Part shown: positions 1-38,763 of the stretch, piece by piece
Layout: each line of letters opens with the position of its first letter
Position numbering within the stretch: position 1 is the stretch's first letter
Source of the DNA: a virus
UHGV virus genome: UHGV-0123627
Direction: 5' to 3' (one strand)
Length of the DNA: 38,813 bases
Notes under the pieces: generated by a model
The model's input: the letters and a program-made list of their open reading frames with translations, nothing else
The model's database searches: none
What the model was told of the DNA's origin: nothing
Made by a program: the position numbers and the translations under genes

Positions 1-49
1 TTATCAATTTGTTGCAACGAACAGGTCACTATCAGTCAAAATAAAATCA
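1..49. other. P' arm of lambda-type attachment site (prophage attL side) with Int arm-type sites
   Basis: Sequence directly downstream of the int stop contains CAGGTCACTAT, AGTCAAAAT and AATCATTAT-type motifs, matching the lambda attP P' arm as remembered. The core itself would lie just upstream of position 1. Confidence 0.6.
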
Positions 50-1120
50 TTATTTGATTTCAATTTTGTCCCACTCCCTGCCTCTGTCATCACGATACTG
101 TGATGCCATGGTGTCCGACTTATGCCCGAGAAGATGTTGAGCAAACTTATCGCTTATCTGCTTCTCATAGAGTCTTGCAGACAAACTGCGCAACTCGTGA
201 AAGGTAGGCGGATCCCCTTCGAAGGAAAGACCTGATGCTTTTCGTGCGCGCATAAAATACCTTGATACTGTGCCGGATGAAAGCGGTTCGCGACGAGTAG
301 ATGCAATTATGGTTTCTCCGCCAAGAATCTCTTTGCATTTATCAAGTGTTTCCTTCATTGATATTCCGAGAGCATCAACATGCAATGCTGTTGGGATGGC
401 AATTTTTACGCCTGTTTTGCTTTGCTCGACATAAAGATATCCATCTACGATATCAGACCACTTCATTTCGCATAAATCACCAACTCTCTGCCCGGTAACA
501 ACAGCCAGTTCCATTGCAAGTCTTAGCCAACATGGTGATGATTCTGCTGCTTGATAAATTTTCAGGTATTCGTCAGCCGTAAGCCTTGATCTCCTTACCT
601 CTGATTTTGCTGCGCGAGTGGCAGCGACCGGGTTTGTTGTTATATGGCCTTCAGCTATTGCCTCTCGGAATGCATCGCTCAGTGTTGATCTGATTAACTT
701 GGCTGATGCCGCCTTGCCCTCGTCTATGTATCCATTAAGCATTGCCGCAATTTCTTTTGTGGTGATGTCTTCAAGTGGAGCATCAGGCAGACCCCTCCTT
801 ATTGCTTTAATTTTGCTCATGTAATTTATGAGTGTCTTCTGCTTGATTCCTCTGCTGGCGAGTATTTTTTCGTAGCGATCAAGCCATGAATGTAGCGTAA
901 CAGAATTATCACTGTTGATTCTTGCTGTCAGAGGCTTGTGTTTGTGTCCTGAAAATAACTCAATGTTTGCCTGTATTGCTTCAGTAATTGCTATCCTCCT
1001 GTCTCTGCCTAATCCGAACTCTTTACCCGTCCTTGGGTCCCTGTAGCAGTAATATCCATTGTTTCTTATATAAAGGTTAGGGGGTAAATCCCGGCGCTCA
1101 TGACTTCGCCTTCTTCCCAT
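50..1120 (-). CDS. int: Tyrosine integrase, lambda Int
   Basis: 356-aa ORF; translation MGRRRSHERRDLPPNLYIRNNGYYCYRDPRTGKEF... matches lambda Int essentially end to end from memory. Confidence 0.97.
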   Translation of the reverse strand: MGRRRSHERRDLPPNLYIRNNGYYCYRDPRTGKEFGLGRDRRIAITEAIQANIELFSGHKHKPLTARINSDNSVTLHSWLDRYEKILASRGIKQKTLINYMSKIKAIRRGLPDAPLEDITTKEIAAMLNGYIDEGKAASAKLIRSTLSDAFREAIAEGHITTNPVAATRAAKSEVRRSRLTADEYLKIYQAAESSPCWLRLAMELAVVTGQRVGDLCEMKWSDIVDGYLYVEQSKTGVKIAIPTALHVDALGISMKETLDKCKEILGGETIIASTRREPLSSGTVSRYFMRARKASGLSFEGDPPTFHELRSLSARLYEKQISDKFAQHLLGHKSDTMASQYRDDRGREWDKIEIK

Positions 1121-1316
1121 TTCTGATCCTCTTCAAAAGGCTACCTGTTACTGGTCGATTTAAGTCAACCTTTACCGCTGATTCGTGGAACAGATACTCT
1201 CTTCCATCCTTAACCGGAGGAGGGAATATCTTGCACTCGCGTACCCATCGACGAACTGTTTCAAGGCTTCTTGGACGTCGCTGGCGTGCGTTCCACTCCT
1301 GAAGTGTCAAGTACAT
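1098..1316 (-). CDS. xis: Excisionase, lambda Xis
   Basis: 72-aa ORF MYLTLQEWNARQRRPRSLETVRRWVRECKIFPPPVKDGREYLFHESAVKVDLNRP...; overlaps the int start as in lambda. Confidence 0.95.
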   Translation of the reverse strand: MYLTLQEWNARQRRPRSLETVRRWVRECKIFPPPVKDGREYLFHESAVKVDLNRPVTGSLLKRIRNGKKAKS

Positions 1317-1340
1317 CGCAAAGTCTCCGCAATTACACGC

Positions 1341-1364
1341 AAGAAAAAACCGCCATCAGGCGGC
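1341..1364 (-). terminator. Candidate intrinsic terminator upstream of xis (tL3-like position)
   Basis: On the minus strand a GC hairpin GCCGCC-TGAT-GGCGG is followed by TTTTTTCTT. Confidence 0.45.
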
Positions 1365-1523
1365 TTGGTGTTCTTTCAGTTCTTCAATTCGAATATTGGT
1401 TACGTCTGCATGTGCTATCTGCGCCCATATCATCCAGTGGTCATAGCAGTCATTGATGTTCTCTGCTTCGATAACTCTGTTGAATGGTTCTCCATTCCAT
1501 TCACCTGTAACTCGGAAGTGCAT
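1356..1523 (-). CDS. Small hypothetical protein (55 aa)
   Basis: ATG preceded by GGAG at 7 nt; translation MHFRVTGEWNGEPFNRVIEAENINDCYDHWMIWAQIAHADVTNIRIEELKEHQAA; the stop lies in the loop of the terminator hairpin. Below the 60-aa cutoff of the ORF track. Confidence 0.35.
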   Translation of the reverse strand: MHFRVTGEWNGEPFNRVIEAENINDCYDHWMIWAQIAHADVTNIRIEELKEHQAA

Positions 1524-1595
1524 TTATCATCTCCATAAAACAAAACCCGCCGTAGCGAGTTCAGATAAAAGAAATCCCCGCGAATGCGAGGATTG

Positions 1596-1880
1596 TTATT
1601 CATTGCTGATATTCACCTTTATCGCGTATACCTTTACCGGTTTATCGCCGAAGTGGGGATGTGTGATTGTCTTGATTTCATATCCGTCATACGGGACATC
1701 AATTCTGCGACTGAAGTCGTCGCGCTTCGGATATCCCTTTGTGATAATCAGGCGGTCATACTCCCGGAACATAATTCGCTTATTCCAGTAGTCATTACAC
1801 AAGCGATACTCTTCCGTTTTCTCCCCGCGAATCATGGCGTCGAAGTATTCACCTTTAACGGCAAGTTGCAGGTTAGCCAC
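1596..1880 (-). CDS. Hypothetical protein, ASCH/DUF3850-like
   Basis: 94-aa ORF with GTG start and AGGAGG 6 nt upstream; motif pattern resembles small ASCH (PUA-like) phage proteins. Family assignment from memory only. Confidence 0.55.
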   Translation of the reverse strand: MANLQLAVKGEYFDAMIRGEKTEEYRLCNDYWNKRIMFREYDRLIITKGYPKRDDFSRRIDVPYDGYEIKTITHPHFGDKPVKVYAIKVNISNE

Positions 1881-2379
1881 GGTTTACCTCCTGCGGCGGT
1901 TCCGGTAGCGGTATCCAGTGGGTTACATTGCGGCTCTGCGTTTCGAAGAACTCCTCACCATTGCGGACAACATCAAAAAACTCACCGTCTCGATATTGCG
2001 CATAAAGAACGAATGCGCCATCACATAAAATAATTACGTGCTGACCGTCCTCTGGCATTCGCTCACTACAGCTTATCCAACCATCCGGAATTACCGGCGC
2101 TGACGGCGCTGCGTAAAGCGGTGTTATTTCTGCCCGAAAGTCACCTATTTCATGCAGTCGCACCCAGCGTTCGACTTCTGCTTTGTCAGAATACATAGTG
2201 GTGAACGTATTATATTCATTGTCAATTTGCGTGAAGGTTGCCGTCCACGCCACTGGCTCTGCTTCCAGTGATGCCAGTGCGATCTCATAAGCACGGCGTT
2301 CAATATTGTCTCGAACGTACAGGCTGCCGATGCGCTCTTTGATTTCTTTAATCAGTTCTTTGTCGGTGAACGTTGTCAT
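1873..2379 (-). CDS. DUF551-family phage protein
   Basis: 168-aa ORF; C-terminal region (...VTHWIPLPEPPQ) is typical of DUF551 prophage proteins; AAGGA before the ATG. Confidence 0.65.
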   Translation of the reverse strand: MTTFTDKELIKEIKERIGSLYVRDNIERRAYEIALASLEAEPVAWTATFTQIDNEYNTFTTMYSDKAEVERWVRLHEIGDFRAEITPLYAAPSAPVIPDGWISCSERMPEDGQHVIILCDGAFVLYAQYRDGEFFDVVRNGEEFFETQSRNVTHWIPLPEPPQEVNRG

Positions 2380-2389
2380 GTGTTAGTCC

Positions 2390-2653
2390 TTATCCTGCTG
2401 TGCTTTCAACTGATGAGGGGAACAAAATCTTTTCATCAAATCCGGCATTCATATCATGGACAGCAACACACCAATCCATCGACGAACGATTATCAAGAGC
2501 CTCCATGATTTCATCCATGCGGCGTAGGTCATACAGGTAAATGTTTTTATCACCAATGGTGTAAAAACCAATTTTTTTCGGTGATGGACAGCGATCAAGA
2601 ACGTCCTGTAATTCGTTCAACCATGCCTGTTCTTTTTTTGTCAACGTTGCCAT
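2390..2653 (-). CDS. Hypothetical protein (87 aa)
   Basis: Internal ATG of the 117-aa track ORF preceded by AAGGAAA; begins MATLTKKEQAWLNELQDVLDRC... Confidence 0.5.
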   Translation of the reverse strand: MATLTKKEQAWLNELQDVLDRCPSPKKIGFYTIGDKNIYLYDLRRMDEIMEALDNRSSMDWCVAVHDMNAGFDEKILFPSSVESTAG

Positions 2654-2654
2654 A

Positions 2655-2873
2655 TCAGTTTTCCTTATACGGATTAATTTTATTGTGCAGTGTGTTGAAC
2701 GACGCCCATACCACGTCGTTATACAATTCAATAACTGGCTCAATTATTTTCCCGATTGCCCAGACAAAAATTAGCGGGGATATCGGTATCATCAACACGA
2801 TAAACAGAATGAGAAACAGGAATTCTGTCGTTCTACTCTTTCGCGGATATTCTTTTCTGAATAATGTCGGCAC
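2655..2873 (-). CDS. Small predicted membrane protein (72 aa)
   Basis: GTG start with AGGAG 6-7 nt upstream, overlapping the ea22 stop; hydrophobic stretch FLFLILFIVLMIPISPLIFVWAIG. Confidence 0.45.
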   Translation of the reverse strand: MPTLFRKEYPRKSRTTEFLFLILFIVLMIPISPLIFVWAIGKIIEPVIELYNDVVWASFNTLHNKINPYKEN

Positions 2874-2874
2874 A

Positions 2875-3423
2875 TCACTCTCCTTTGATGCGAATGCCAG
2901 CGTCAGACATCATATGCAGATACTCACCTGCATCCTGAACCCATTGACCTCCAACCCCGTAATAGCGATGCGTAATGATGTCGATAGTTACTAACGGGTC
3001 TTGTTCGATTAACTGCCGCAGAAACTCTTCCTGGTCACCAGTGCAGTGCTTGATAACAGGAGTCTTCCCAGGATGGCGAACAACAAGAAACTGGTTTCCG
3101 TCTTCACGGACTTCGTTGCTTTCCAGTTTAGCAATACGCTTACTCCCATCCGAGATAACACCTTCGTAATACTCACGCTGCTCGTTGAGTTTTGATTTTG
3201 CTGTTTCAAGCTCAACACGCAGTTTCCCTACTGTTAGCGCAATATCCTCGTTCTCCTGGTCGCGGCGTTTGATGTATTGCTGGTTTCTTTCCCGTTCATC
3301 CAGCAGTTCCAGCACAATCGATGGTGTTACCAATTCATGGAAAAGGTCTGCGTCAAATCCCCAGTCGTCATGCATTGCCTGCTCTGCCGCTTCACGCAGT
3401 GCCTGAGAGTTAATTTCGCTCAC
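2875..3423 (-). CDS. ea22: Lambda Ea22-like protein
   Basis: 182-aa ORF, same length as lambda Ea22 and at the same position relative to exo. Confidence 0.8.
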   Translation of the reverse strand: MSEINSQALREAAEQAMHDDWGFDADLFHELVTPSIVLELLDERERNQQYIKRRDQENEDIALTVGKLRVELETAKSKLNEQREYYEGVISDGSKRIAKLESNEVREDGNQFLVVRHPGKTPVIKHCTGDQEEFLRQLIEQDPLVTIDIITHRYYGVGGQWVQDAGEYLHMMSDAGIRIKGE

Positions 3424-3641
3424 TTCGAACCTCTCTGTTTACTGATAAGTTCCAGATCCTCCTGGCAACTTGCACAAGTCCGACAACCCTGAACGGCCAA
3501 GCGTCTTCGTTCATCTATCGGATCGCCACACTCACAACAATGAGTGGCAGATATAGCCTGGTGGTTCAGGCGGCGCATTTTTATTGCTGTGTTGCGCTGT
3601 AATTCTTCAATTTCTGATGCTGAATCAATGATGTCTGCCAT
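3420..3641 (-). CDS. TraR/DksA-family C4 zinc-finger protein (lambda Orf73-like)
   Basis: 73-aa ORF with C-x2-C...C-x2-C (CCECGDPIDERRRLAVQGCRTCASC), typical of TraR-like phage proteins. Confidence 0.8.
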   Translation of the reverse strand: MADIIDSASEIEELQRNTAIKMRRLNHQAISATHCCECGDPIDERRRLAVQGCRTCASCQEDLELISKQRGSK

Positions 3642-3696
3642 CTTTCATTAATCCCTGAATTGTTGGTTAATACGCTTGAGGGTGAATGCGAATAAT

Positions 3697-3717
3697 AAAA
3701 AAGGAGCCTGTAGCTCC
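3697..3717 (-). terminator. Candidate intrinsic terminator (tL2-like position)
   Basis: Minus strand GGAGC-TACAG-GCTCC followed by TTTTTT. Confidence 0.4.
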
Positions 3718-3739
3718 CTGATGATTTTGCTTTTCATGT

Positions 3740-3955
3740 TTACCGTTCCTTAAAGACGCCGTTCAACATGCCGATCGCCAGGCTTAAATGAGTCGGTGTG
3801 AATCCCATCAGCGTTACCGTTTCGCGGTGCTTCTTCAGTACGCTACGGCAAGTGTCATCGACGTTTTTATCCGGAAACTGCTGTCTGGCTTTTTTGATTT
3901 CAGAATTAGCCTGACGGGCAATGCTGCGAAGGGCGTTTTCCTGCTGAGGTGTCAT
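3740..3955 (-). CDS. Hypothetical early-left operon protein (lambda orf63-like position)
   Basis: Track ORF 3740..4021; the internal ATG at 3955 gives the 71-aa MTPQQENALRSIARQANSEIKK... product. The start is uncertain; the 4021 alternative is not excluded. Confidence 0.5.
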   Translation of the reverse strand: MTPQQENALRSIARQANSEIKKARQQFPDKNVDDTCRSVLKKHRETVTLMGFTPTHLSLAIGMLNGVFKER

Positions 3956-4031
3956 TGAACAAGTCCCATGTCGGCAAGCATAAGCACACAGAATATGAAG
4001 CCCGCTGCCAGAAAAATGCATTCAGTGGTTG

Positions 4032-4223
4032 TCATACCTGGTCTCTCTCATCTGCTTCTGCTTTCGCCACCATCATTTCCAGCTTTTGTGAAAGGGATGT
4101 GGCTAACGTATGAAATTCTTCGTCTGTTTCTACTGGTATTGGCACAAACCTGACTCCAATTTGAGCAAGGCTATGTGCCATCTCAATACTCGTTCTTAAC
4201 TCAACAGGAGATGCTTTGTGCAT
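4032..4223 (-). CDS. Hypothetical early-left operon protein (lambda orf60a-like position)
   Basis: 63-aa ORF with GGGAGG 6 nt upstream of the ATG. Confidence 0.55.
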   Translation of the reverse strand: MHKASPVELRTSIEMAHSLAQIGVRFVPIPVETDEEFHTLATSLSQKLEMMVAKAEADERDQV

Positions 4224-4374
4224 ACCGCCTCCCGTTTATTATTTATCTTCTCAGCCAGCCGCTGTGCTTTCAGTGGATTTCTGATAACAGAAAGGCCGGG
4301 AAATACCCAGCCTCGCTTTGTAACGGAGTAGACGAAAGTGATCGCGCCTACCCGGATATTATCGTGAGGATGCG

Positions 4375-5055
4375 TCATCGCCATTGCTCCCCAAATACAA
4401 AACCAATTTCAGCCAGTGCCTCGTCCATTTTTTCGATGAACTCCGGCACCATCTCGTCAAAACTCGCCATGTACTTTTCATTCCGCTCAATCACGACATA
4501 ATGCAGGCCTTCACGCTTCATGCGCGGGTCATAGTTGGCAAAGTACCAGGCATCTTTTCGCGTCACCCACATGCTGTACTGCACCTGGGCCATGTAAGCC
4601 GACTTTATGGCCTCGAAACCACCGAGCCGGAATTTCATGAAATCCCGGGAGGTAAACGGGCATTTCAGCTCAAGGCCATTGCCGTCACTGCATAAACCAT
4701 CGGGAGAGCAGGCGGTGCGCATACTTTCGTCGCGATAGATGATCGGGGATTCAATAACATTTACGCCGGAAGTGAACTCAAACAGGGTTCTGGCGTCGTT
4801 CTCGTACTGTTTTCCCCAGGCCAGCGCTTTAGCGTTAACTTCCGGAGCCACACCGGTGCAAACCTCAGCTAGCAGGGTGTGGAAGTAGGACATTTTCATG
4901 TCAGGCCACTTCTTTCCTGATCGGGGCTTTGCTATCACGTTGTGAACTTCTGAAGCGGTGATGACGCCGAGCCGTAATTTGTGCCATGCATCATCCCCCT
5001 GTTCGACAGCTCTCACGTCGATCCCGGTACGCTGCAGGATAATGTCCGGTGTCAT
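4375..5055 (-). CDS. exo: Lambda exonuclease (Red-alpha)
   Basis: 226-aa [68 protein letters not shown]... matches lambda Exo. Confidence 0.97.
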
Positions 5056-5837
5056 GCTGCCACCTTCTGCTCAGTGGCTTTCTGTTTCAGGAATCCAAGA
5101 GCTTTCACTGCTTCGGCCTGTGTCAGTTCTGACGATGCGCGAATGTCGCGGCGAAATATCTGGGAACAGAGCGGCAATAAGTCGTCATCCCATGTTTTAT
5201 CCAGGGCGATCAGCAGAGTGTTAATCTCCTGCATGGTTTCATCGTTAACCGGAGTGATATCGCGTTCCGGCTGACGTTCTGCAGTGTATGCAGTATTTTC
5301 GACAATGCGCTCGGCTTCATCCTTGTCATAGATACCAGCAAATCCGAAGGCCAGACGGGCACACTGAATCATGGCTTTATGCCGTAACATCCGTTTGGGA
5401 TGCGACTGCCACGGTCCGGTGATTTCTCTGCCTTCGCGGGTTTTGAATGGTTCGCGGCGGCATTCATCCATCCACTCGGTAACGCAGATCGGATGATTAC
5501 GGTCCTTGCGGTAAATCCGGCATGTGCAGGATTCATTGTCCTGCTCAAAGTCCATGCCATCAAACTGCTGGTTTTCATTGATGATGCGGGACCAGCCATC
5601 AACGCCCACCACCGGAACGATGCCGTTCTGCTTATCAGGGAAGGCGTAAATTTCTTTCGTCCACGGATTAAGGCCGTACTGGTTGGCGACGATCAACAAT
5701 GCGATGAACTGCGCATCGCTGGCATCACCTTTAAATGCCGTCTGGCGAAGAGTGGTGATCAGTTCCTGTGGGTCGACAGAATCCATGCCGACTCGTTCAG
5801 CCAGCTTCCCAGCCAGCGTTGCGAGTGCTGTACTCAT
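5052..5837 (-). CDS. bet: Lambda Bet single-strand annealing protein (Red-beta)
   Basis: 261-aa [69 protein letters not shown]... matches lambda Bet. Confidence 0.97.
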
Positions 5838-5842
5838 CCGTT

Positions 5843-6259
5843 TTATACCTCTGAATCAATATCAACCTGGTGGTGAGCAATGGTTTCAACCATGTACTGG
5901 ATGTGTTCTGCCATGCGCTCCTGAAACTCAACATCGTCATCAAACGCACGGGTAATGGCTTTTTTGCTGGCCCCGTGGCGTTGCAAATGATCGATGCATA
6001 GCGATTCAAACAGGTGCTGGGGCAGGCCTTTTTCCATGTCGTCTGCCAGTTCTGCCTCTTTCTCTTCTCGGGCGATCTGCTGGTAGTGACGCGCCCAGCT
6101 CTGAGCCTCAAGACGATCCTGAATGTAATAAGCGTTCATGGCTGAACTCCTGAAATAGCTGTGAAAATATCGCCCGCGAAATGCCGGGCTGATTAGGAAA
6201 ACAGGAAAGGGGGTTAGTGAATGCTTTTGCTTGATCTCAGTTTCAGTATTAATATCCAT
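5843..6259 (-). CDS. gam: Lambda Gam (RecBCD inhibitor)
   Basis: 138-aa [64 protein letters not shown]... matches lambda Gam (long form). Confidence 0.95.
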
Positions 6260-6357
6260 TTTTTATAAGCGTCGACGGCCTCACGAAACATCTTTTCATC
6301 GCCAATAAAAGTGGCGATAGTGAATTTAGTCTGGATAGCCATAAGTGTTTGATCCAT
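6214..6357 (-). CDS. kil: Kil (host killing / FtsZ inhibitor)
   Basis: Internal ATG of the 89-aa track ORF gives the 47-aa [47 protein letters not shown], matching lambda Kil; overlaps gam and cIII as in lambda. Confidence 0.8.
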
Positions 6358-6490
6358 TTTTTGGGACTCCTGGCTGATTAAGTATGTCGATAAGGCGTTT
6401 CCATCCGTCACGTAATTTACGGGTGATTCGTTCAAGTAAAGATTCGGAAGGGCAGCCAGCAACAGGCCACCCTGCAATGGCATATTGCAT
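6326..6490 (-). CDS. cIII: cIII (FtsH inhibitor, stabilises CII)
   Basis: Manual translation gives the 54-aa [54 protein letters not shown], matching lambda CIII. Below the ORF-track size cutoff. Confidence 0.85.
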   Translation of the reverse strand: MQYAIAGWPVAGCPSESLLERITRKLRDGWKRLIDILNQPGVPKNGSNTYGYPD

Positions 6491-6562
6491 GGTGTGCTCC
6501 TTATTTATACATAACGAAAAACGCCTCGAGTGAAGCGTTATTGGTATGCGGTAACGCCGCGC

Positions 6563-6931
6563 TCAGGCGGCTTTGATAGTCATATCATCTGAATCAAATA
6601 TTCCTGATGTATCGATATCGGTAATTCTTATTCCTTCGCTACCATCCATTGGAGGCCATCCTTCCTGACCATTTCCATCATTCCAGTCGAACTCACACAC
6701 AACACCATATGCATTTAAGTCGCTTGAAATTGCTATAAGCAGAGCATGTTGCGCCAGCATGATTAATACAGCATTTAATACAGAGCCGTGTTTATTGAGT
6801 CGGTATTCAGAGTCTGACCAGAAATTATTAATCTGGTGAAGTTTTTCCTCTGTCATTACGTCATGGTCGATTTCAATTTCTATTGATGCTTTCCAGTCGT
6901 AATCAATGATGTATTTTTTGATGTTTGACAT
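6563..6931 (-). CDS. ea10: Lambda Ea10-like protein
   Basis: 122-aa ORF MSNIKKYIIDYDWKASIEIEIDHDVMTEEKLHQINNFW... at the lambda ea10 position and length. Confidence 0.85.
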   Translation of the reverse strand: MSNIKKYIIDYDWKASIEIEIDHDVMTEEKLHQINNFWSDSEYRLNKHGSVLNAVLIMLAQHALLIAISSDLNAYGVVCEFDWNDGNGQEGWPPMDGSEGIRITDIDTSGIFDSDDMTIKAA

Positions 6932-7134
6932 CTGTTCATATCCTCACAGATAAAAAATCGCCCTCACACTGGAGGGCAAAGAAGATTTCCAATAATCAGA
7001 ACAAGTCGACTCCTGTTTAGTTACGAGCGACATTGCTCCGTGTATTCACTCGTTGGAATGAATACACAGTGCAGTGTTTATTCTGTTATTTATGCCAAAA
7101 ATAAAGGCCACTATCAGGCAGCTTTGTTGTTCTG

Positions 7135-7314
7135 TTAACCAAGTTCTCTGGCAATCATTGCCGTCGTTCGTATTGCCCATTTATCGACATATTTCCCATC
7201 TTCCATTACAGGAAACATTTCTTCAGGCTTAACCATGCATTCCGATTGCAGCTTGCATCCATTGCATCGCTTGAATTGTCCACACCATTGATTTTTATCA
7301 ATAGTCGTAGTCAT
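7135..7314 (-). CDS. ral: Ral (restriction alleviation), C-terminally truncated by an ochre codon at position 60
   Basis: Translation MTTTIDKNQWCGQFKRCNGCKLQSECMVKPEEMFPVMEDGKYVDKWAIRTTAMIARELG then TAA. The in-frame continuation CAG AAC AAC AAA GCT GCC TGA encodes QNNKAA, the C-terminus of 66-aa lambda Ral as remembered. No ORF of 60 aa or more appears in the track here, consistent with truncation. Confidence 0.7.
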   Translation of the reverse strand: MTTTIDKNQWCGQFKRCNGCKLQSECMVKPEEMFPVMEDGKYVDKWAIRTTAMIARELG

Positions 7315-7384
7315 ACGGATAGTCCTGGTATTGTTCCATCACATCCTGAGGATGCTCTTCGAACTCTTCAAATTCTTCTTCCAT
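7298..7384 (-). CDS. Small ORF (28 aa), lambda orf28-like
   Basis: ATG with GAGGTGA upstream; acidic peptide MEEEFEEFEEHPQDVMEQYQDYPYDYDY; overlaps the ral start. Confidence 0.4.
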   Translation of the reverse strand: MEEEFEEFEEHPQDVMEQYQDYPYDYDY

Positions 7385-7438
7385 ATATCACCTCAAATAA
7401 GTTGTTTGCTGCGAAAGTAAATACGCTTAAGTTACCTG

Positions 7439-7576
7439 TTATTTATCCCACCAAGTTCCGTATCTATCTATCCAGTTACACCAATCATCGACACTCCATT
7501 TTGTTGTGTCGCATTTTGGCAACTGGCATGAATATCTACCTTCTTTGTAAAGTCGGCGTTTGACTTTCTTGAGCAT
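7439..7576 (-). CDS. Small Cys-containing ORF (45 aa), hypothetical
   Basis: ATG 8 nt after the N stop with GAGGTG upstream; MLKKVKRRLYKEGRYSCQLPKCDTTKWSVDDWCNWIDRYGTWWDK. Sits where lambda carries sieB. Confidence 0.3.
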   Translation of the reverse strand: MLKKVKRRLYKEGRYSCQLPKCDTTKWSVDDWCNWIDRYGTWWDK

Positions 7577-7584
7577 GGCTCACC

Positions 7585-7917
7585 TCAATCGTAATAAGCT
7601 GGAATTGATTTTCCGCGTTGCTTCTGGCGGCCTGAGCAAGTCACACCCATTTCACAGCGTGGCTTGCTGTACCATGTGCGCTGATTCTTGCGCTCAATAC
7701 GTTGCAGGTTGCTTTCAATCTGTTCGTGGTATTCAGCCAGCACCGTAAGGTCTATCGGATTCAGTGCGCTTTCTACTCGTGATTTCGGTTTGCGATTCAG
7801 CGAGAGAATAGGGCGGTTAACTGGTTTTGCGCTTACCCCAACCAACAGGGGATTTGCTGCTTTCCATTGAGCCTGTTTCTCTGCGCGACGTTCGCGGCGG
7901 CGTGCTTGTGCATCCAT
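7585..7917 (-). CDS. N: Antiterminator N (lambda-like variant)
   Basis: Internal ATG of the track ORF gives MDAQARRRERRAEKQAQWKAANPLLVGVSAKPVNRPILSLNRKPKSRVESALNPIDLTVLAEYH..., with the arginine-rich motif; C-terminus differs from lambda N. Confidence 0.9.
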   Translation of the reverse strand: MDAQARRRERRAEKQAQWKAANPLLVGVSAKPVNRPILSLNRKPKSRVESALNPIDLTVLAEYHEQIESNLQRIERKNQRTWYSKPRCEMGVTCSGRQKQRGKSIPAYYD

Positions 7918-8027
7918 CTGGATTCTCCTGTCAGTTAGCTTTGAGTAACGCGCCGTGATGCTTATCTCCACGGTTGCTGTCTTGCAGCTGCATTTCGCGC
8001 TACTCAAAGCCTTCTGCTTTGAATGCT

Positions 8028-8058
8028 GCCCTTCTTCAGGGCTAAATTTTTAAGAGCG
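8028..8058 (-). promoter_or_regulatory. nutL (boxA CGCTCTTA + boxB GCCCTGAAGAAGGGC)
   Basis: Minus-strand reading gives CGCTCTTAAAAATTTAGCCCTGAAGAAGGGC, the lambda nutL boxA and boxB hairpin. Confidence 0.8.
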
Positions 8059-8090
8059 TCACCTTCATGGTGGTCAGTGCGTCCTGCTGA

Positions 8091-8170
8091 TGGCTTAAAA
8101 TTACAAGAAAGATTGTATGTTGTAAACAAGAAATATTGTAAAAATGGGCGTGAAAAACAAACTCCATTGT
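8091..8170 (-). promoter_or_regulatory. pL promoter region with three 434-type OL operators
   Basis: Three 14-bp ACAA-N6-TTGT sites (about 8103-8116, 8126-8139, 8157-8170); the minus-strand leader ATCAGCAGGACGCACTGACCACCATGAAGGTGACGCTCTTA matches the lambda pL transcript start. Confidence 0.75.
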
Positions 8171-8220
8171 TTTTAAACGTAAAATAGTTTGTTTTTTGGT
8201 TGTCGAAATCGAGGTGAGGA

Positions 8221-9573
<1,353 letters not shown>

Positions 9574-9581
9574 GACATTCC

Positions 9582-9613
9582 CGCTCTTACACATCCCAGC
9601 CCTGAAAAAGGGC
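9582..9613 (+). promoter_or_regulatory. nutR (boxA CGCTCTTA + boxB GCCCTGAAAAAGGGC), followed by the lambda-like tR1 region
   Basis: Direct read of the boxA/boxB motifs; downstream ACCACACCTATGGTGTATGCATTTATTTGCATACATTCAATCAATTG matches the lambda tR1 region. Confidence 0.8.
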
Positions 9614-14679: not shown

Positions 14680-15328
14680 TGGCAGCAAATACCGAAATAT
14701 TTGGGTAGTTGGCGATCTGCACGGATGCTACACGAACCTGATGAAAAAACTGGAGACGATGGGATTCGACACCAAAAAAGACCTGCTTATCTCGGTTGGC
14801 GATTTGGTCGATCGCGGTACAGAGAACGTCGAATGTCTGGAATTAATCACATTCCCCTGGTTCCGAGCTGTACGTGGAAACCATGAGCAAATGATGATTG
14901 ATGGCTTATCAGAGCGTGGAAACGTCAATCACTGGCTGTTTAATGGCGGTGGCTGGTTCTTTAATCTCGATTACGACAAAGAAATTCTGGCTAAAGCTCT
15001 TGCCCATAAAGCAGATGAACTTCCGTTAATCATCGAACTGGTGAGCGAAGGTAAAAAATATGTCATCTGCCACGCCGATTATCCTTGTGACGAATACGAA
15101 TTTGGAAAGCCAGTTGATCATCAGCAGGTAATCTGGAACCGCGAACGAATCAGCAACTCACAAGACGGGATCGTGAAAGAAATCAAAGGAGCTGACACGT
15201 TCATCTTTGGTCATACGCCAGCAGTGAAACCACTCAAGTTTGCCAACCAGATGTATATCGATACCGGCGCAGTGTTCTGCGGAAACCTCACATTGATTCA
15301 GGTACAGGGAGAAGGCGCGTGGGCATAA
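14657..15328 (+). CDS. ninI: NinI Ser/Thr protein phosphatase
   Basis: [29 protein letters not shown]...GNHE... metallophosphatase motifs; matches the lambda phosphatase. Confidence 0.9.
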
Positions 15329-15837
15329 GAGAACTAAACCTCACCAAAGAGCAGCACGAGTGGCTGAATGGCTGGCTTGAACTGTGGGGCGCATGGGTTT
15401 ATTCAGGTCGTCTGGAAAAGCGCATGAGCAGCGTAATAGCGAAGTTCATGGAGAGCGTAGAGCCGGGAAGAGTTATGACAAGGCCAATGTGCAATGATGA
15501 TGATGGAATGTTGATTTCTCAGGTCGTCGATTCCGTCATGTACATTGACAAAAAAGCCTTTGGCATCCTCCTCAGCTACTACGCTCATGGTTCATCTAAG
15601 CGAGCAATTGCATCCTACTATCACGCGACTGCAAAGCCACGCAAGATGTGTGGACGTGGTGGCGAGGGATGGAGAAAACCTTCACTGGCAACCTGTAGAA
15701 ACGAAATTGACGACATCCTGAAAGCGTCATTATTTGTTTTGTACCAACCAATGCAAAATGCTTTCAAAATGCGTAAACGTGTTGAGAAAGTTAAGCATGT
15801 TGCTGTTAAAAACCTTGACATGCAATTAGCCATTTAG
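15319..15837 (+). CDS. Late-gene antiterminator Q (non-lambda, QuuD/phage 82-like family)
   Basis: 172-aa ORF directly after ninI; the ...[12 protein letters not shown]... and ...[14 protein letters not shown]...YYAHG... segments resemble the ERWGAW / CDDD motifs of QuuD-type Q proteins as remembered. Not lambda Q. Confidence 0.65.
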
Positions 15838-15844
15838 CTATAAT
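15815..15844 (+). promoter_or_regulatory. Candidate late promoter pR'
   Basis: TTGACA (about 15815-15820), 18-bp spacer, TATAAT (about 15839-15844); the -35 lies in the last codons of Q. Confidence 0.5.
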
Positions 15845-15854
15845 TAGAGGGTAA

Positions 15855-15897
15855 GCTGCCGTTAGTGACTCTTAAGTTGCAACGGTGGCTTTTTTTA
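15855..15897 (+). terminator. Candidate tR' terminator
   Basis: GCTGCCGTT ... AACGGTGGC hairpin (two G-U pairs, long loop) followed by TTTTTTTATTT. Confidence 0.4.
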
Positions 15898-15900
15898 TTT

Positions 15901-15975
15901 GGGTCAGTCGTATAAAGGTCATTACGGAAGGCTGTTAACCTTCTTATCGTGGTTCGAGTCCACGCTGTCCCGCCA
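15901..15975 (+). tRNA. tRNA-like gene, anticodon GTT (Asn) by manual fold
   Basis: Hand-folded cloverleaf: T-arm CGTGG-TTCGAGT-CCACG, anticodon arm GAAGG-CTGTTAA-CCTTC, 3' end GCCA; the acceptor stem has one T-T mismatch and the D stem is 3 bp. Confidence 0.5.
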
Positions 15976-15980
15976 AATAT

Positions 15981-16056
15981 GCTGGTTTAGCTCCAATGGT
16001 AGAGCAGTCGCCTTGTAAGCGAATGGGTAGCGGTTCAAGTCCGTTAACCAGCACCA
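15981..16056 (+). tRNA. tRNA gene, anticodon TGT (Thr) by manual fold
   Basis: Perfect 7-bp acceptor stem GCTGGTT/AACCAGC, D-arm GCTC/GAGC, T-loop TTCAAGT, encoded CCA end; anticodon loop CTTGTAA. Confidence 0.7.
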
Positions 16057-16300
16057 TAACTGAGCCGTAGCCACTGGCTATCCTGAATTCATCAGTGATA
16101 GTTACGCTGCGGCCTTCTACACATGACCTTCGTGAAAGCGGGTGGCATGAGGTTGCGCTAACAACCTCCTGCCGTTTTGCCCGTGCATATCGGTCACGAA
16201 CAAATCTGATTACTAAACACAGTAGCCTGGATTTGTTCTATCAGTAATCGACCTTATTCCTAATTAAATAGAGCAAATCCCCTCAATGAAGGGGTAGAGC

Positions 16301-16504
16301 ATGTACCGTATGGACAAAATCAGAGAATGGTTCAGTTACAGCTTCGGAGGACTGACTGCGATGGGTGGCATTCTCTCCCTGAATGACTGGGCTGTCATCA
16401 TTGGTATTCTTTGTACTGTCGGCACATTTGGCATCAACTGGTACTACAAGCGCAAAGAGCGCGAGGACAGATTGAATGGCAATGTCACCGGCACTACGAA
16501 ATAG
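16301..16504 (+). CDS. Holin (small two-TMD class, likely pinholin) with dual-start motif
   Basis: 67-aa [60 protein letters not shown]...; Met1 and Met4 separated by a basic residue; directly upstream of a SAR endolysin. Confidence 0.8.
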
Positions 16505-16979
16505 CGTAATAGCGGCGATAAGTGGCGGGGCTATTGCTATAGCATCTGTGTTAATCACTGGACCAAGTGGTAACGATGGCCTGGAAGGTGTCAGCTACAT
16601 ACCATACAAAGATATTGTTGGTGTATGGACTGTATGTCACGGGCATACAGGAAAAGACATCATGCTCGGTAAAACGTATACCAAAGCAGAATGCAAAGCC
16701 CTCCTGAATAAAGACCTTGCCACGGTCGCCAGACAAATTAACCCGTACATCAAAGTCGATATACCGGAAACAACGCGCGGCGCTCTTTATTCGTTCGTCT
16801 ATAACGTGGGCGCAGGCAATTTCAGAACATCGACGCTTCTTCGCAAAATCAACCAGGGCGATATCAAGGGCGCATGTGACCAGCTACGTCGCTGGACATA
16901 CGCTGGCGGTAAGCAATGGAAAGGGCTGATGACTCGCCGTGAGATTGAGCGTGAAGTCTGTTTGTGGGGGCAGCAATGA
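16476..16979 (+). CDS. SAR endolysin (lysozyme, phage 21 R / P1 Lyz type)
   Basis: N-terminal Gly/Ala-rich weakly hydrophobic signal-anchor-release segment ([19 protein letters not shown]) followed by a lysozyme-like domain; GAGGA 8 nt before the ATG. Confidence 0.9.
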
Positions 16980-17413
16980 GCAGAGTAACTGCGATTATCT
17001 CCGCTCTGGTTATCTGCATCATCGTCTGCCTGTCATGGGCTGTTAATCATTACCGTGATAACGCAATCGCCTACAAAGAGCAGCGCGATAAGGCCGCATC
17101 CACAATTGCTGACATGCAGAAGCGTCAACGTGATGTAGCAGAACTTGACGCCAGATACACAAAGGAGCTTGCTGATGCTAACGCGACTATCGAAAGTCTC
17201 CGTGCTGATGTTTCTGCTGGTCGTAAGCGCCTGCAAGTCGCCGCCACCTGTGCAAAGTCAACGACCAGAGCCAGCGGCATGGGCGATGGAGAAAGCCCAG
17301 GACTTACAGCAGATGCTGAACTCAATTATTACCGTCTCCGAAGTGGAATCGACAAGATAACCGCGCAGGTTAACTACCTGCAGGAATACATCAGGACGCA
17401 ATGCCTGAAATGA
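16976..17413 (+). CDS. Rz: Rz i-spanin
   Basis: [30 protein letters not shown]... matches the lambda Rz N-terminus; start overlaps the endolysin stop (ATGA). Confidence 0.9.
17175..17360 (+). CDS. Rz1: Rz1 o-spanin (lipoprotein), embedded in the +1 frame of Rz
   Basis: [20 protein letters not shown] then a Pro-rich segment; lipobox LVVSAC; wholly inside Rz. Confidence 0.75.
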
Positions 17414-34004: not shown

Positions 34005-34125
34005 CCTTGATGCCTCACCAGTTGGGTGGAATGGCATCGTAACCTACTGGATAAATACTCAATAGTACCATTTCGGTATGCAATCAAATCATGGTTGCAT
34101 CATATCATTCGTCTGGAGCAATGAA

Positions 34126-35931
34126 ATGTCAGATATCACCGCAAATGTTGTGGTAAGCATGCCTTCTCAACTCTTCACTATGGCTCGTTCTTTTAAAGCT
34201 GTAGCCAATGGCAAAATTTATATCGGTAAAATTGACACTGACCCGGTAAATCCTGAAAACCAGATTCAGGTTTATATAGAGAACGAAGACGGTTCTCACG
34301 TTCCTGTTTCGCAACCAATCATCATTAATGCTGCTGGTTACCCCGTATATAACGGACAGATTACCAAGTTCGTAACTGTACAGAATCACTCCATGGCTGT
34401 ATATGATGCGTATGGCGCACAACAATTCTATTATCCTGATCTACTGAAATATTCTCCAGATCAGTTAAGGGCTGAGCTTTCTGGCCCTGATGGCGCATCT
34501 CTGGTTGGTTATGGAGATGAAACTGTCAAAGATGCTCTTGACAATAATGCCCATAAAATAGATACGTTGAGAAGTGACTTGGCTGCTGATGATGGCTTTC
34601 GCCACATAGGCAACTTTCTCAATTTAGATGCGCTGAGGGATTCAATACCATTAGTTGCTGGAGAAATTGTCTATGTAGCTTCAGCAGCAAGTGCTACAGC
34701 AACTGAAAAACATTATGGCGGTGGTTACTTCCAGTCTTTCGACAATAGCACATCACAGATTGCCGATGATGGAGGGATTGTTATTGTTCCAAGTTCAGGT
34801 AAATTTGCTTGGAGGAGGGTTGTTGATGGTGAGATATGGGTAGAGTATTTTGGAGCAAAACCGATAAATGATTTTGACAACGCCTCTGCAATATCAAAGG
34901 CTTTATCATATGGATATGATAATAATACCCCTATTCATTTTATGTCAGGTGAATATCTAACCTCCGAAAGTCCTGTTGTAAAGTCATGGTCTGGAATCAT
35001 AGGTCAAGGTCAAAATAAGACGATTATCTCTAAAACAACAAATAACGCGAACACCATAATTTCTGGAGTCTCAGTGGATGCACTGCTGATTATTCTTCCA
35101 AAAAAATTCGTTGTAGATGGTGTTGAGAGTGATAACTATGCTACAGGCGTAGAGATACAAGGTGTTACTTTAAGACGTCATGAAATTATAGATAGAAATA
35201 ATCAACCAACATATGGAATATACTCTCCTTACATGGCTTCAAGTTTGTTAAGAGACTTGCGTGTAGAATGTGGGTATTATGGTTTTTGGGGTGAAGATTG
35301 CTTCTCAAATATATTTGAACGGTGCGGTTTTTTAGGTTTGGCTATTGGGCAGTTTACTGGTTTTTATTTAGGTAAAGTGAGGGATGGTATATATAACCTT
35401 TCTGGAACAAGTAATCTTCTAGACCAGGTGGGAGTTGTTAATTATCAAATTGGTTTTGAAATTGACGCTCAACAGTACACAACACTAAATTGTTGTACTG
35501 CTGATTCTATATTTCCTATGTCTGGTACTACTGAGACAATATCAAGAGCTTATCTTTTCAATAACCCTCATGGAATAACAATGAATAGTTGTGGAAGTGA
35601 GAATGTAAAGGGGGAAAGAATAGCAGTAGTCCAAGCTTCGCCATCTATTTATGACGGTACAATGGTGATAAATGGATGTCAATTTCAGGTTGTCCCAGCA
35701 AATCCACCAATTTCTTTGCCAATATTTAGGTTTGAGAACAATGGCACAAATTCATTTAATTTGTACATAACAGTAAATTCATCTAACTTTCGTCGAGATT
35801 CTTCTACAACACCAAACCTAATTCAAGGATATGTTTATGGTGGTACTGGCGCTGTCACAGTCGTAAGATTCATAGCATCTGTTCTTGAAGATCCGATAAC
35901 GGCAGGAAATGTAGATGTTAAACTAATTTAG
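34126..35931 (+). CDS. Tailspike protein (P22 gp9-like head-binding domain, divergent receptor-binding domain)
   Basis: [79 protein letters not shown]... matches the P22 tailspike N-terminal domain; the rest is dissimilar; GGAG 7 nt upstream. Confidence 0.9.
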
Positions 35932-35938
35932 CTATAAG

Positions 35939-36012
35939 AAAGCCGTTAATTTTTATATTCAACGGCTTTAATTGTTTCTGCAAAAGACCATATCTTTAGG
36001 AGATGGTCTTTT
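35939..36012. terminator. Two hairpins between convergent tailspike and gtr genes (bidirectional terminators)
   Basis: AAAGCCGTT-loop-AACGGCTTT and AAAAGACCAT-loop-ATGGTCTTTT, both perfect stems flanked by A/T runs. Confidence 0.55.
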
Positions 36013-36027
36013 GCTTAATTGTGGTGT

Positions 36028-37488
36028 TTATTTACATAAAGAATCATCAAAACTCACCATTACATTCTCATTATCACGATAAATTTTAATATCATTAGAT
36101 GAATAAATTAGTGTTGATTTACAATAGTCCTTCATGAACATAGATACTTCTTTACTGGAAAAATCAGGATAATTTTGATTTACTCCTCTAATCTTGAGGT
36201 ATACATGAGAGCCATACCAGTTATAGAAGTAGTCGAGTACTATTGTTTTGAATAGTGGATAATTTAATTCTGAATTAAGTAGTATAGGGGATTTTGGTGA
36301 ACTACCATTAAACATAACATTAACACTATTTTCGGGTATGTTTTTTAACGCTAGCCCAATAATTTCAGCAATGTATTTATTTTTATCATCTTGTGCTCGC
36401 AAAGCATTTCCATATGAATAAAAAAGAGTAATTATATAAAAAAGGAATATTAAAAATATACCGTTGACAATTCTTGTGTTATTTATTCCCAAATATAAAA
36501 GGGTGAAGATGAATAAAAAAAGACCATTAAACCCAATATAAACCCTTGCAAAAGTTGTTAGAGTGTTTTCAAGGAGAAGTAATGAAATCATTGATGATAT
36601 AAAAGTCAAAGGTAATGATAACACTGCCATCAAAGATAAAAAAACAGCAGCATTACACTTGTGTTTTTTAATGTAAACAAAAACCAATTTAATGGCAAAT
36701 GCAAATGATACAATAAAACTACCAATTAATAATTCACTCCCATGCTCAGGGATTATATTTCTAGTGTAGAAATCATAATACGCAATAAAGTTCTTATGAA
36801 TTACATCTATAATATTTGTGGCAACTCCTGGGTGATTTTGACTATTGTCATTAACATGAGTTAACGGCAGTACAACCCTCATATAGATAACAGCGCCAAC
36901 CAATACTTCGATAATTCGAAATGCAATTGACTTTATTATGTGTGTTGGCTCTTTATTATTCTTTATGTTAACAAACATTTCTATAGAGATTAATATAAAA
37001 ACTATATTAATAGATGCTTGGTAAAATGAAAATAAGATAACTATAAAGCTAGAATGTAAAATAAATGAAATTACCGTGTTTTTATAGTTTAGACAAATAA
37101 ATGCAAATGCAAAAAATATCGAAGCTGAGATGGTTAAGCTATCAAACCTGTATGATAGAGGTTCGATTATAAATGGACTTAATAAAAATGACAACGGTAA
37201 AAAAAGATAATGATTATCTGAATTAAATAATTTAATGTGAAATAGATAAAATGAAATAGACAATAGCAAACATGCTATTATTAGAGGCAATGGAGCCAAG
37301 TCAGTTAGATGATTGTTAAAATTAAGAATAATCATTAATCTATCTGATAATGGTCTACCATCAATTCCCCAATAAGTTACGCCGCTCATTGCTCTGCTCA
37401 TATCATCGCTGTAGTAAACATTTGCAATTATAATTGGGAGCGCAAGTAAGAATGTGATAAATAAGTAAATCTTAATGTTATTTTTCAT
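36028..37488 (-). CDS. Serotype-specific O-antigen glucosyltransferase (GtrC-type polytopic membrane protein)
   Basis: 486-aa very hydrophobic multi-TM protein in AT-rich DNA, directly downstream of gtrB in the same operon. Confidence 0.75.
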
Positions 37489-38404
37489 TTTTAGAACTCT
37501 TTAAAAGATATTTCGGCCTTTGCTTTGTTTCAATATAAATTCGTCCAATGTACTCACCAAGAACACCAATACCAATGAGTTGGATACCACCAAGGAAAAG
37601 TATAGATACTAGCAGGGATGGATAACCTCTAACCGGGTTTCCAAACGCCAGAGTGTCCAGAATCATCCATGCGCCATATGTAAATGCTAAGCCAGCGACG
37701 AGAAGGCCGATGTAAGTCCACATACGTAGCGGAAAAGTCGAGAAGCTCGTAATTCCCTCAAGAGCAAGATTCCACAACTTCCATCCGTTGAACTTGGTAC
37801 TGCCAGCAACACGTTCTGCGCGGGCATAATCAACGATATCAGTGCGACCACCAACCCAACTCAAAACACCCTTCATGAAAAGGTTGCGTTCTGGCATGAG
37901 CTTAATGTTCTCTACGACTTCACGAGACATCAGACGGAAATCACCAACATTTTCCTCGATCTGCGGATTGCTGATTTTATTGTGAAGCTTATAGAACCAC
38001 TCGGCGGTTTTCCTCTTCAGTCTGCCATCCGTTGAGCGGTCAGATCGTTTAGCAAGCACCATATCAGCACCTGCCTGCCACTTTTCAATAAGATGAGGAA
38101 TAACCTCAATCGGGTCTTGCAGGTCAACATCAATTGGAATCACGGCATCGCCAGTTGCATGGTCTAACCCTGCAAACAATGCTGGTTCTTTACCAAAGTT
38201 GCGTGTAAATGACAGCGGAACAACTAGCGGATCATAAACAGCCAGAGCGTTAATGATTGACTCCGTAGAGTCTTTGCTACCATCATTTATAAAAACAATT
38301 TCTACTTCATATGGCTTCAACTCTTCGAATTCACGTACCGTTTTATAAAAAATTGGTATCGCTTCTTCTTCATTGAAGACAGGAACTACAAGAGATATCT
38401 TCAT
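37478..38404 (-). CDS. gtrB: Bactoprenol glucosyltransferase GtrB (GT2 family)
   Basis: 308-aa [47 protein letters not shown]... with two C-terminal TM segments. Confidence 0.95.
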
Positions 38405-38763
38405 TTCGCATCCCTAAAGACAATGAACTTTGAATAGACGAAACCGCACACCAGGCTGATGGCGGAGAAAGTGATAAGGGTGACCATCGGGGGAAGGGCG
38501 CATCTATCAGCAGCCCACCCGACGACAACACTCAATGTTCCCATGAATCCCACGTATAACAAGTAACGCATCGTTGTAGTCGATGCCTTGAATGTGAATT
38601 TTGCATTCGCGAAGAAGCTAAAACTCACAGCCACAACGAAACCTGCGAAGTTTGCAAGAGCTTGGTTTGTATGCGCGGCATAGATACAAACACCAAAAAC
38701 CACCCAGTGTATAAGGGTGTTCAGCACACCAATCGAGGTGTACTTTGCAAATAGCTTTAACAT
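38401..38763 (-). CDS. gtrA: GtrA flippase-like small membrane protein
   Basis: 120-aa four-TM protein [31 protein letters not shown]... ending in ...FIVFRDAK; first gene of the gtr operon. Confidence 0.9.

Follow-up and report, generated by a model that had tools for sequence, protein, structure and literature searches.

A late control region of the phage 21 type with two probably functional tRNA genes in the coliphage genome UHGV-0123627

Between the genes for its Q antiterminator and its holin, the virus genome UHGV-0123627 (38,813 nucleotides, the whole of which was analysed and is called the window here) carries a promoter, an intrinsic terminator and two genes, one for tRNA-Asn(GUU) and one for tRNA-Thr(UGU). 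With good confidence we read this region as late-gene control on the plan of phage 21 in a P22/Sf6-like temperate coliphage, with two functional tRNAs standing first on the late transcript. The elements concerned are the following.

15319..15837, plus strand: Q antiterminator gene, 172 amino acids, assigned to the Q21 family, Sf6 gp59 / phage L gp23 subtype.
15815..15820, plus strand: -35 hexamer TTGACA of the late promoter pR', aligned with the annotated pR' -35 of phage 21.
15824..15839, plus strand: two tandem 8-bp repeats, AATTAGCC/ATTTAGCT, a putative Q-binding element (QBE) in the promoter spacer, containing the Q stop codon.
15839..15844, plus strand: pR' -10 hexamer TATAAT, aligned with the annotated phage 21 -10 AACACT.
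15851, plus strand: predicted late transcription start, homologous to the annotated start of phage 21 (OL657228, 39541).
15852..15858, plus strand: sigma-dependent pause element (SDPE) TAAGCTG, the same sequence as the annotated SDPE of phage 21.
15853..15896, plus strand: tR' intrinsic terminator, an 11+6 bp hairpin with U7.
15901..15975, plus strand: tRNA-Asn (GUU), called by ARAGORN (gtt) and Rfam, CCA encoded, with U4.U69 and U13.U22.
15981..16056, plus strand: tRNA-Thr (UGU), called by ARAGORN (tgt) and Rfam, CCA encoded, with G27.A43 and C14.

A megablast search with positions 15780–16300 matched 181 phage records. The phage 21 record OL657228 is annotated with, in order, the pR' -35, the QBE, the -10, the start, the SDPE, the terminator, tRNA-Asn, tRNA-Thr and the holin gene S21, and these annotations cite PMID 1704887 for the terminator (Guo, Kainz and Roberts 1991) and PMID 31455742 for the QBE (Yin et al. 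2019). The window shares the order and the overall spacing of these elements. In a four-way alignment its positions 15852–16056 equal phage 21 except for one base in the spacer between the tRNAs, the pause element, the terminator and both tRNAs being identical. The first-pass annotation had proposed a candidate pR'–tR' unit at this place, and promoter and terminator indeed align base for base with the annotated pR' and tR' of phage 21. The differences lie on either side of the identical stretch. The phage 21 promoter has a spacer of 17 bp and a -10 of AACACT, as against 18 bp and TATAAT in the window, and its QBE reads ATTGAGCA/AATGAGCA where the window has AATTAGCC/ATTTAGCT; downstream, phage 21 has the holin S21, whereas the window holin is of the HP1 family and the sequence follows lambda beyond 16118.

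Judged by its sequence, the upstream open reading frame (ORF) is a Q21-family antiterminator. It matched Phage_antitermQ in Pfam (PF06530, 1.1e-25) and the Q21 chains 6P18 and 6JNX in the PDB (E about 1e-92). Overall identity with phage 21 Q is 86%, with residues 1–94 all the same and a C-terminal third that has diverged and is 10 residues longer; identity is 99% with Sf6 gp59 and 97% with the proteins of phages L and BTP1. In the phage L genome paper (PMC8022706) the L protein is described as differing from Q21 mainly after residue 94, in the QBE-contacting part, and AATTATCC/ATTTAGCC is the proposed L QBE, replacing that of phage 21. The window repeats are of this Sf6/L type. They occupy the same alignment columns as the annotated phage 21 QBE, and the DNA-contacting region of the window Q differs from Q21 in step with the difference between the repeats.

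The two promoter hexamers (15815–15844), 18 nt apart, match the consensus at 12 of 12 positions. The site is unique in the window, none of 100 shuffled sequences gave one, and the stop codon of Q (TAG, 15835–15837) lies inside its spacer, in agreement with the earlier description of a consensus-like promoter overlapping the end of Q. The late start at 15851 is placed by homology with phage 21. The perfect TATAAT is peculiar to the window: Sf6, BTP1 and L read CATAAT and phage 21 reads AACACT, and the full TTGACA-N16-18-TATAAT was present in 0 of the 18 comparison loci fetched. The C-to-T change that makes TATAAT (15839) falls on the final position of the second repeat as well and turns ATTTAGCC into ATTTAGCT.

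A hairpin with a U-run had likewise been reported behind the promoter. Folding of 15853–15891 gave −20.2 kcal/mol (z = −5.4), a value that none of 200 shuffled sequences reached, and seven T residues follow at 15890–15896, with tRNA-Asn beginning 4 nt downstream of the run. The terminator of phage 21 has the same sequence (100% identity). A simple scan for terminators demands a single uninterrupted stem and for that reason passed over the hairpin; folding confirmed it.

A separate tRNA promoter was considered and rejected, as only 4 nt lie between the U-run and tRNA-Asn and no other consensus site is nearby. There being no room for a promoter, the tRNA transcripts must come from polymerases that pass tR'. 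The tRNAs of the Stx2a (Shiga toxin 2a) phage are apparently driven by a separate promoter between tR' and stx (PMC7547250), an arrangement that cannot apply here because the window has no space for it.

According to the proposed mechanism, RNA polymerase would begin at pR' near 15851 and pause at 15852–15858. Without Q, transcription would end at tR' and yield a leader RNA which, given a start placed at 15851 by homology, should be about 45 nt long. Once Q has accumulated, it would bind the spacer repeats and load onto the paused polymerase, which would then ignore tR'. The tRNAs would thus be made mainly by Q-modified read-through, a dependence suggested by their position and by homology, while leakage through the terminator or N-modified transcription from pR, the latter expected from lambda biology, may add to it. 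Host processing enzymes would presumably cut the tRNAs from the head of the late mRNA, with the CCA already encoded.

ARAGORN called exactly two tRNA genes across the window, both on the plus strand and with the anticodons that the first-pass annotation had assigned. Their Rfam scores (RF00005) are 55.3 bits for Asn and 61.5 bits for Thr, the gathering score being 29, and the minimum-free-energy folds of both are cloverleaves. Encoded CCA ends, which had also been noted, are present in both genes, and the spacer between them consists of 5 nt, AAATA. For tRNA-Asn, the Rfam alignment and a count of pairs bear out the described acceptor mismatch (U.U at 4:69) and the D stem of 3 bp, with U.U at 13:22. 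The near-canonical cloverleaf described for tRNA-Thr was recovered too, apart from a G27.A43 mismatch atop the anticodon stem and a C at position 14 where A is usual. Position 14 is almost always A in tRNAs and is the pairing partner of U8. Phages 21, Oslo and Mulock have the same C14 (window 15994) in their copies, and the tRNA is reportedly functional. The identity elements of E. coli AsnRS are G34, U35, U36 and G73, and those of ThrRS are G1-C72, C2-G71, G35 and U36; all of these bases are present in the window tRNAs. With permissive thresholds, Rfam returned nothing besides the tRNAs between 15000 and 17000 except for a chance snoRNA match (E 0.23).

One or both tRNAs, and especially tRNA-Asn, might be relics in decay that came with the leader/terminator module of phage 21 and no longer work as tRNAs. 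Decay at this tRNA site does occur: in the second tRNA of phage L, 4 nt of tRNA-Thr are deleted and ARAGORN makes no call, and in a prophage of Shiga toxin-producing E. coli (STEC; strain 2015C-4498) tRNA-Asn is reduced to its first 24 nt behind the same leader. The two non-standard pairs of the window tRNA-Asn would fit the same picture. Against it stands the conservation of the sequences. tRNA-Asn is base-for-base identical in the window and in phages 21, Sf6, BTP1 and L, and tRNA-Thr in the window and in phages 21, Sf6 and BTP1. The Klebsiella phages Mulock and 2b LV-2017 have more distant copies at the same genomic position, and in a comparison covering only 3–4 distinct sequences, 6 of the 7 Asn substitutions in the Klebsiella phages fall in stems and form three compensatory pairs (6:67, A-U to G-C; 7:66, G-C to A-U; 28:42, A-U to C-G), while tRNA-Thr of Mulock has two (3:70 and 6:67, each U-A to C-G). 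The odd pairs were kept: U13.U22 in every Asn copy compared, G27.A43 in every Thr copy, and U4.U69 in all Asn copies except that of phage Oslo (U.G). The compensatory stem changes, the retained odd pairs and the identity elements together argue against decaying relics, as do the 55 bits of tRNA-Asn against a threshold of 29, with G73 and the GUU anticodon in place. In addition, the tRNA-Thr of phage 21, named tRNA-Thr21, is active in vivo (PMC12445682). Both tRNAs look functional from these comparisons, and we consider relics very improbable.

Several neighbours of this comparison are worth recording. The "tRNA-Leu(TAA)" of phage L (locus 781–852) aligns with the window tRNA-Thr minus 4 nt around positions 26–29 and lacks a long variable arm; its appearance is that of a degenerated tRNA-Thr and not of a leucine tRNA. 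In Mulock (locus 1201–1520) an expanded array, Asn-Phe-Thr-Arg(TCT), fills the place between the antiterminator-region gene and that of the holin, and the same slot in phage 2b LV-2017 (locus 1201–2252) holds a tRNA-Asn ending in GACA, a second tRNA-Asn with U4.C69, and Arg(TCT). The proteins upstream of these two arrays, compared with Q by length alone, have 214 and 224 amino acids, as against the 172 of Q.

The tRNA genes could also be sequences related to integration, that is, attP-type fragments or targets which are not expressed. Many temperate phages have tRNA-like segments in attP, and P22-like phages rebuild thrW on integration (PMC8022706). In those phages, however, the attP fragment adjoins int and derives from thrW (CGU) and not from a UGU tRNA, whereas the window has two complete tRNAs with CCA, placed 15 kb from int (50–1120, minus strand), between Q and the holin gene and on the strand of the late operon. 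Their position and completeness effectively rule out such a role, and we give it next to no weight.

A more serious alternative is pure codon supplementation, in which the tRNAs would only raise the decoding of codons favoured by the phage during the late burst, without any role in defence. It has been proposed before, in the SfI and phage L genome papers (phage L, PMC8022706), and the tRNAs, placed where the late operon begins, would suit it. Codon usage was compared with a host sample of 42 MG1655 genes. ACA reaches 19.3 per 1000 codons in the late genes (33% of Thr codons), 15.1 in the early genes (30%) and 5.4 in the host sample (10%), so that it is about 3.5 times as frequent in the phage as in the E. 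coli sample; the proportion of ACA among late Thr codons differs from that sample with Fisher p = 5e-19. Asn codons amount to 51.5 per 1000 in late genes, 41.1 in early genes and 37.6 in the host sample, and AAC makes up 52%, 56% and 63% of them, respectively. The codons of both tRNAs had been singled out for attention by the first-pass annotation, and enrichment was seen for ACA in the late genes but not for AAC among the Asn codons. Codon usage therefore supports supplementation for Thr only, and the SfI genome paper came to the same ACA bias and to none for Asn. Even for Thr, the enrichment in early genes is the same as in late ones, which counts against pure supplementation.

Further evidence against pure supplementation comes from work on the Old nuclease of prophage P2. 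In the experiments of Govande et al. 2025 (PMC12445682), P2 Old, triggered by Gam inhibition of RecBCD, killed cells by cutting host tRNA-ThrU in its anticodon stem, at a CNG motif present as a pair (positions 28–30 and 40–42), and it also cut tRNA-Asn(GUU). In the same study, phage tRNA-Thr(UGU) genes rescued Old toxicity, while extra host tRNA-ThrU gave no protection. tRNA-Thr21 was protective and remained uncut at Site 1, which the authors ascribed to two features, an anticodon stem of reduced length and a CNG motif changed by C28U/G42A; resistance required stem shortening and motif change together. The phage 21 genome has a single tRNA-Thr with a 100% match to that of the window, and the window tRNA-Thr is therefore, in sequence, tRNA-Thr21. 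Its U28, A42 and G27.A43 contrast with the CUG/CAG and the complete stem of E. coli thrU. Hence an identical tRNA rescues by resistance to a nuclease, and the changes in the anticodon stem coincide exactly with known cleavage motifs; on these grounds we regard supplementation without a defence role as unlikely. The window itself encodes the trigger of Old.

5843..6259, minus strand: lambda-type gam (Pfam Gam, 6.5e-64), coding for a RecBCD inhibitor and trigger of Old according to PMC12445682.

In our interpretation, tRNA-Thr(UGU) would both replace and supplement the single host tRNA that reads ACA, tRNA-ThrU, and its altered and shortened anticodon stem would make it resistant to the Old of a P2 prophage activated by the phage's own Gam.

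tRNA-Asn(GUU) probably plays the same part for another tRNA that both Old and AriB, the Toprim nuclease of PARIS, attack. AriB cuts E. coli tRNA-Lys(UUU) as well as tRNA-Thr(UGU) and, more weakly, tRNA-Asn(GUU) between positions 40 and 41, beside a UAAU motif, and full rescue needs the T5 variants of all three tRNAs, which are changed around the cut site (PMC12409363). The anticodons UGU and GUU of the window thus match host tRNAs targeted by Old and AriB (PMC12445682, PMC12409363). Both thrU and asnT of the host contain UAAUC and show a CNG in each strand. In the window, tRNA-Thr reads UCG/CGA and UAAGC followed by G, and tRNA-Asn reads AAG/CUU and UAACC followed by U. E. coli asnT in particular has CGG/CCG, a paired CNG, and U36AAUC, and the window tRNA-Asn lacks both (AAG/CUU, U39C). 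Position 39 is changed in the Thr, Asn and Lys tRNAs of T5, as it is in both window tRNAs. A parallel anti-nuclease replacement role of tRNA-Asn is plausible because Old and AriB cut host tRNA-Asn(GUU) and the window copy is without the asnT motifs.

Several observations temper this reading of the region, most of them concerning tRNA-Asn. Its anticodon stem has five standard pairs, the full 5 bp, whereas Old-resistant tRNA-Thr needed the shortening that G27.A43 brings about in the window, Oslo and Mulock. The tRNA-Asn homologue of Mulock has a paired CNG motif (CAG/CUG), so the loss of CNG is not conserved in this tRNA-Asn lineage. Asn is read in the host by four gene copies (asnT, U, V, W), AAC is without enrichment among the Asn codons of the phage, and U4.U69 and U13.U22 could lower the activity of tRNA-Asn. 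Supply and defence are both putative roles in its case. As to late control, the repeats differ from the phage 21 QBE, and we infer Q binding only from their covariation with the C-terminal region of Q.

A bolder proposal is that the Asn(GUU) and Thr(UGU) pair forms a matched two-tRNA counter-defence cassette against P2 Old and PARIS AriB, Toprim nucleases carried by prophages and satellites that target both host counterparts, which we put forward tentatively, as a possibility somewhat short of even. Lambdoid phages that provide Gam or another trigger would keep nuclease-proof copies at the head of the late operon, timed for late translation. The peculiarities of tRNA-Asn (U4.U69, U13.U22 and the altered positions 39–42) would then be adaptations for nuclease evasion and not defects.

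Relatives of the module, other than phage 21, differ from the window in various ways. The record of Shigella phage Sf6, AF547987 (region of genes 59–61), gives the order gene 59 (Q21-like), promoter, qut site, late leader terminator, tRNA-Asn, tRNA-Thr and holin gene, and describes the promoter as nearly identical to the late promoter of phage 21. Sf6, BTP1, L/ST64T and SfI resemble the window in type of putative QBE, terminator and tRNA pair, with a degenerate second tRNA in phage L, annotated as Leu(TAA); SfI has the same pair and the ACA bias. The lambda-like segment before the holin gene is present in Sf6 as well. In contrast to the window, Sf6, BTP1 and L have CATAAT at -10, the U-run of Sf6 is one T shorter, and Sf6 has a holin and endolysin of the lambda type. 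P22 has no tRNA genes (PMC8022706).

Likeness to the tRNAs of T5 acting against PARIS AriB (PMC11464382, PMC12409363) and to the phage tRNA-Thr(UGU) acting against P2 Old (PMC12445682) consists in anticodons equal to those of the host targets, in substitutions at and around position 39 on the 3' strand of the anticodon stem, in loss of CNG and, for tRNA-Thr, in a shortened stem. However, T5 is a virulent phage with a large tRNA array, whereas the window has a two-tRNA cassette in late position in a temperate phage and is without tRNA-Lys(UUU), the main AriB target.

The first-pass annotation had compared the layout with that of Stx phages. This is apt as far as tRNAs between a Q-controlled terminator and the lysis genes are concerned, and some STEC prophages share the Q21 leader and tR'. 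It does not extend to content: Stx phages have tRNAs Ile, Arg and Arg (ileZ-argN-argO in 933W-type phages) upstream of the toxin gene stx, and the window has Asn and Thr and neither toxin nor other cargo. The prophage of E. coli 2015C-4498 (locus 2501–3015) has a Q21-type Q, the same leader and terminator, 24 nt of tRNA-Asn, unrelated sequence and then tRNA-Ile-Arg-Arg; the phage 21 module and an array of the Stx-phage type are therefore connected by a recombination joint within tRNA-Asn.

The late operon continues behind the tRNAs with the following features.

16058..16296, plus strand: untranslated late-operon segment homologous to lambda just upstream of gene S (lambda 44945–45181, 95.4%).
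16301–16504, plus strand: class II holin (Pfam Phage_holin_2_3, HP1 family).
16476–16979, plus strand: lysozyme of the signal-anchor-release (SAR) type (Pfam Phage_lysozyme), with an N-terminal hydrophobic SAR-like segment.
16964–17413, plus strand: Rz (Pfam Phage_lysis).
17145–17360, plus strand: Rz1 frame embedded in Rz, from the ORF list.

The lysis cassette (16301..17413) comprises the first protein-coding genes of the late operon. From tRNA-Thr to the holin start there are 244 nt (16057–16300) with a single ORF of 50 codons (16095–16247). This ORF was rejected as a cargo gene, as it sits in an unannotated lambda stretch of 95% identity, and the earlier statement that the interval holds no cargo stands, the sequence being lambda-like and non-coding. 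Phage 21 shares only the first 61 nt of the lambda-like segment (16058–16118). Homology to lambda begins one base past the CCA of tRNA-Thr, which makes the right edge of the tRNA cassette a three-way mosaic joint (16057–16118). Just upstream of the joint lambda (locus 1118–1210) reads AGCACAACCC, which resembles the tRNA 3' end AGCACCA and may be the remnant of a lost tRNA. Homology to lambda stops at 16296, and the window holin belongs to a different family. A G+C hairpin of 6 bp, CCCCTCAATGAAGGGG (16279–16294), lies directly 5' of the holin start codon, where lambda has the CCCCTTATTGGGGG structure before gene S.

The virion genes of the window are of the Sf6/P22 type, with a P22-type coat protein and a head-binding tailspike. 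The left arm (within 1–9600) is lambda-type, with int, exo, bet, gam and N, and also has a 434-like repressor; the right end (within 34078–38763) has a gtrA/gtrB/GtrII-type glucosyltransferase cluster. For the first 25 kb, coverage by any single record of the phage or E. coli collections does not exceed 60%, and the window is therefore an unusual and new mosaic of known modules. Of 5426 complete E. coli genomes, 355 (≈6.5%) contain the leader with both tRNAs at ≥80% coverage, and 828 contain some part of it. Among phages of Escherichia, Shigella, Salmonella and Klebsiella, the records with the tRNA pair number at least 60. The exact inter-tRNA junction was present in 4 species representatives of a genome-contig collection with one genome per species, a count that carries little weight. 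The exact enterobacterial tRNA-Asn/tRNA-Thr junction also stands on short contigs in gut metagenome-assembled genomes labelled Segatella copri and Collinsella sp., where coliphage contigs have probably been mis-binned.

The unit of late control and tRNAs is already known from phages 21, Sf6, SfI, L and BTP1 and is annotated in many records; the Sf6 genome paper dates from 2004. The window brings no new biology in this respect and adds a further copy of the module annotated in Sf6 (AF547987) and phage 21 (OL657228, 2022). Its value for annotation is that it fixes the start of the late operon and types Q as a member of the Q21 family, Sf6/L subtype. It also flags a Gam-encoding phage as carrier of the tRNA-Thr shown to blunt P2 Old (PMC12445682). 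The point of some interest is tRNA-Asn as a possible second half of a two-tRNA anti-nuclease cassette. If this holds for tRNA-Asn, nuclease-resistant replacement would explain why these two tRNAs travel together.

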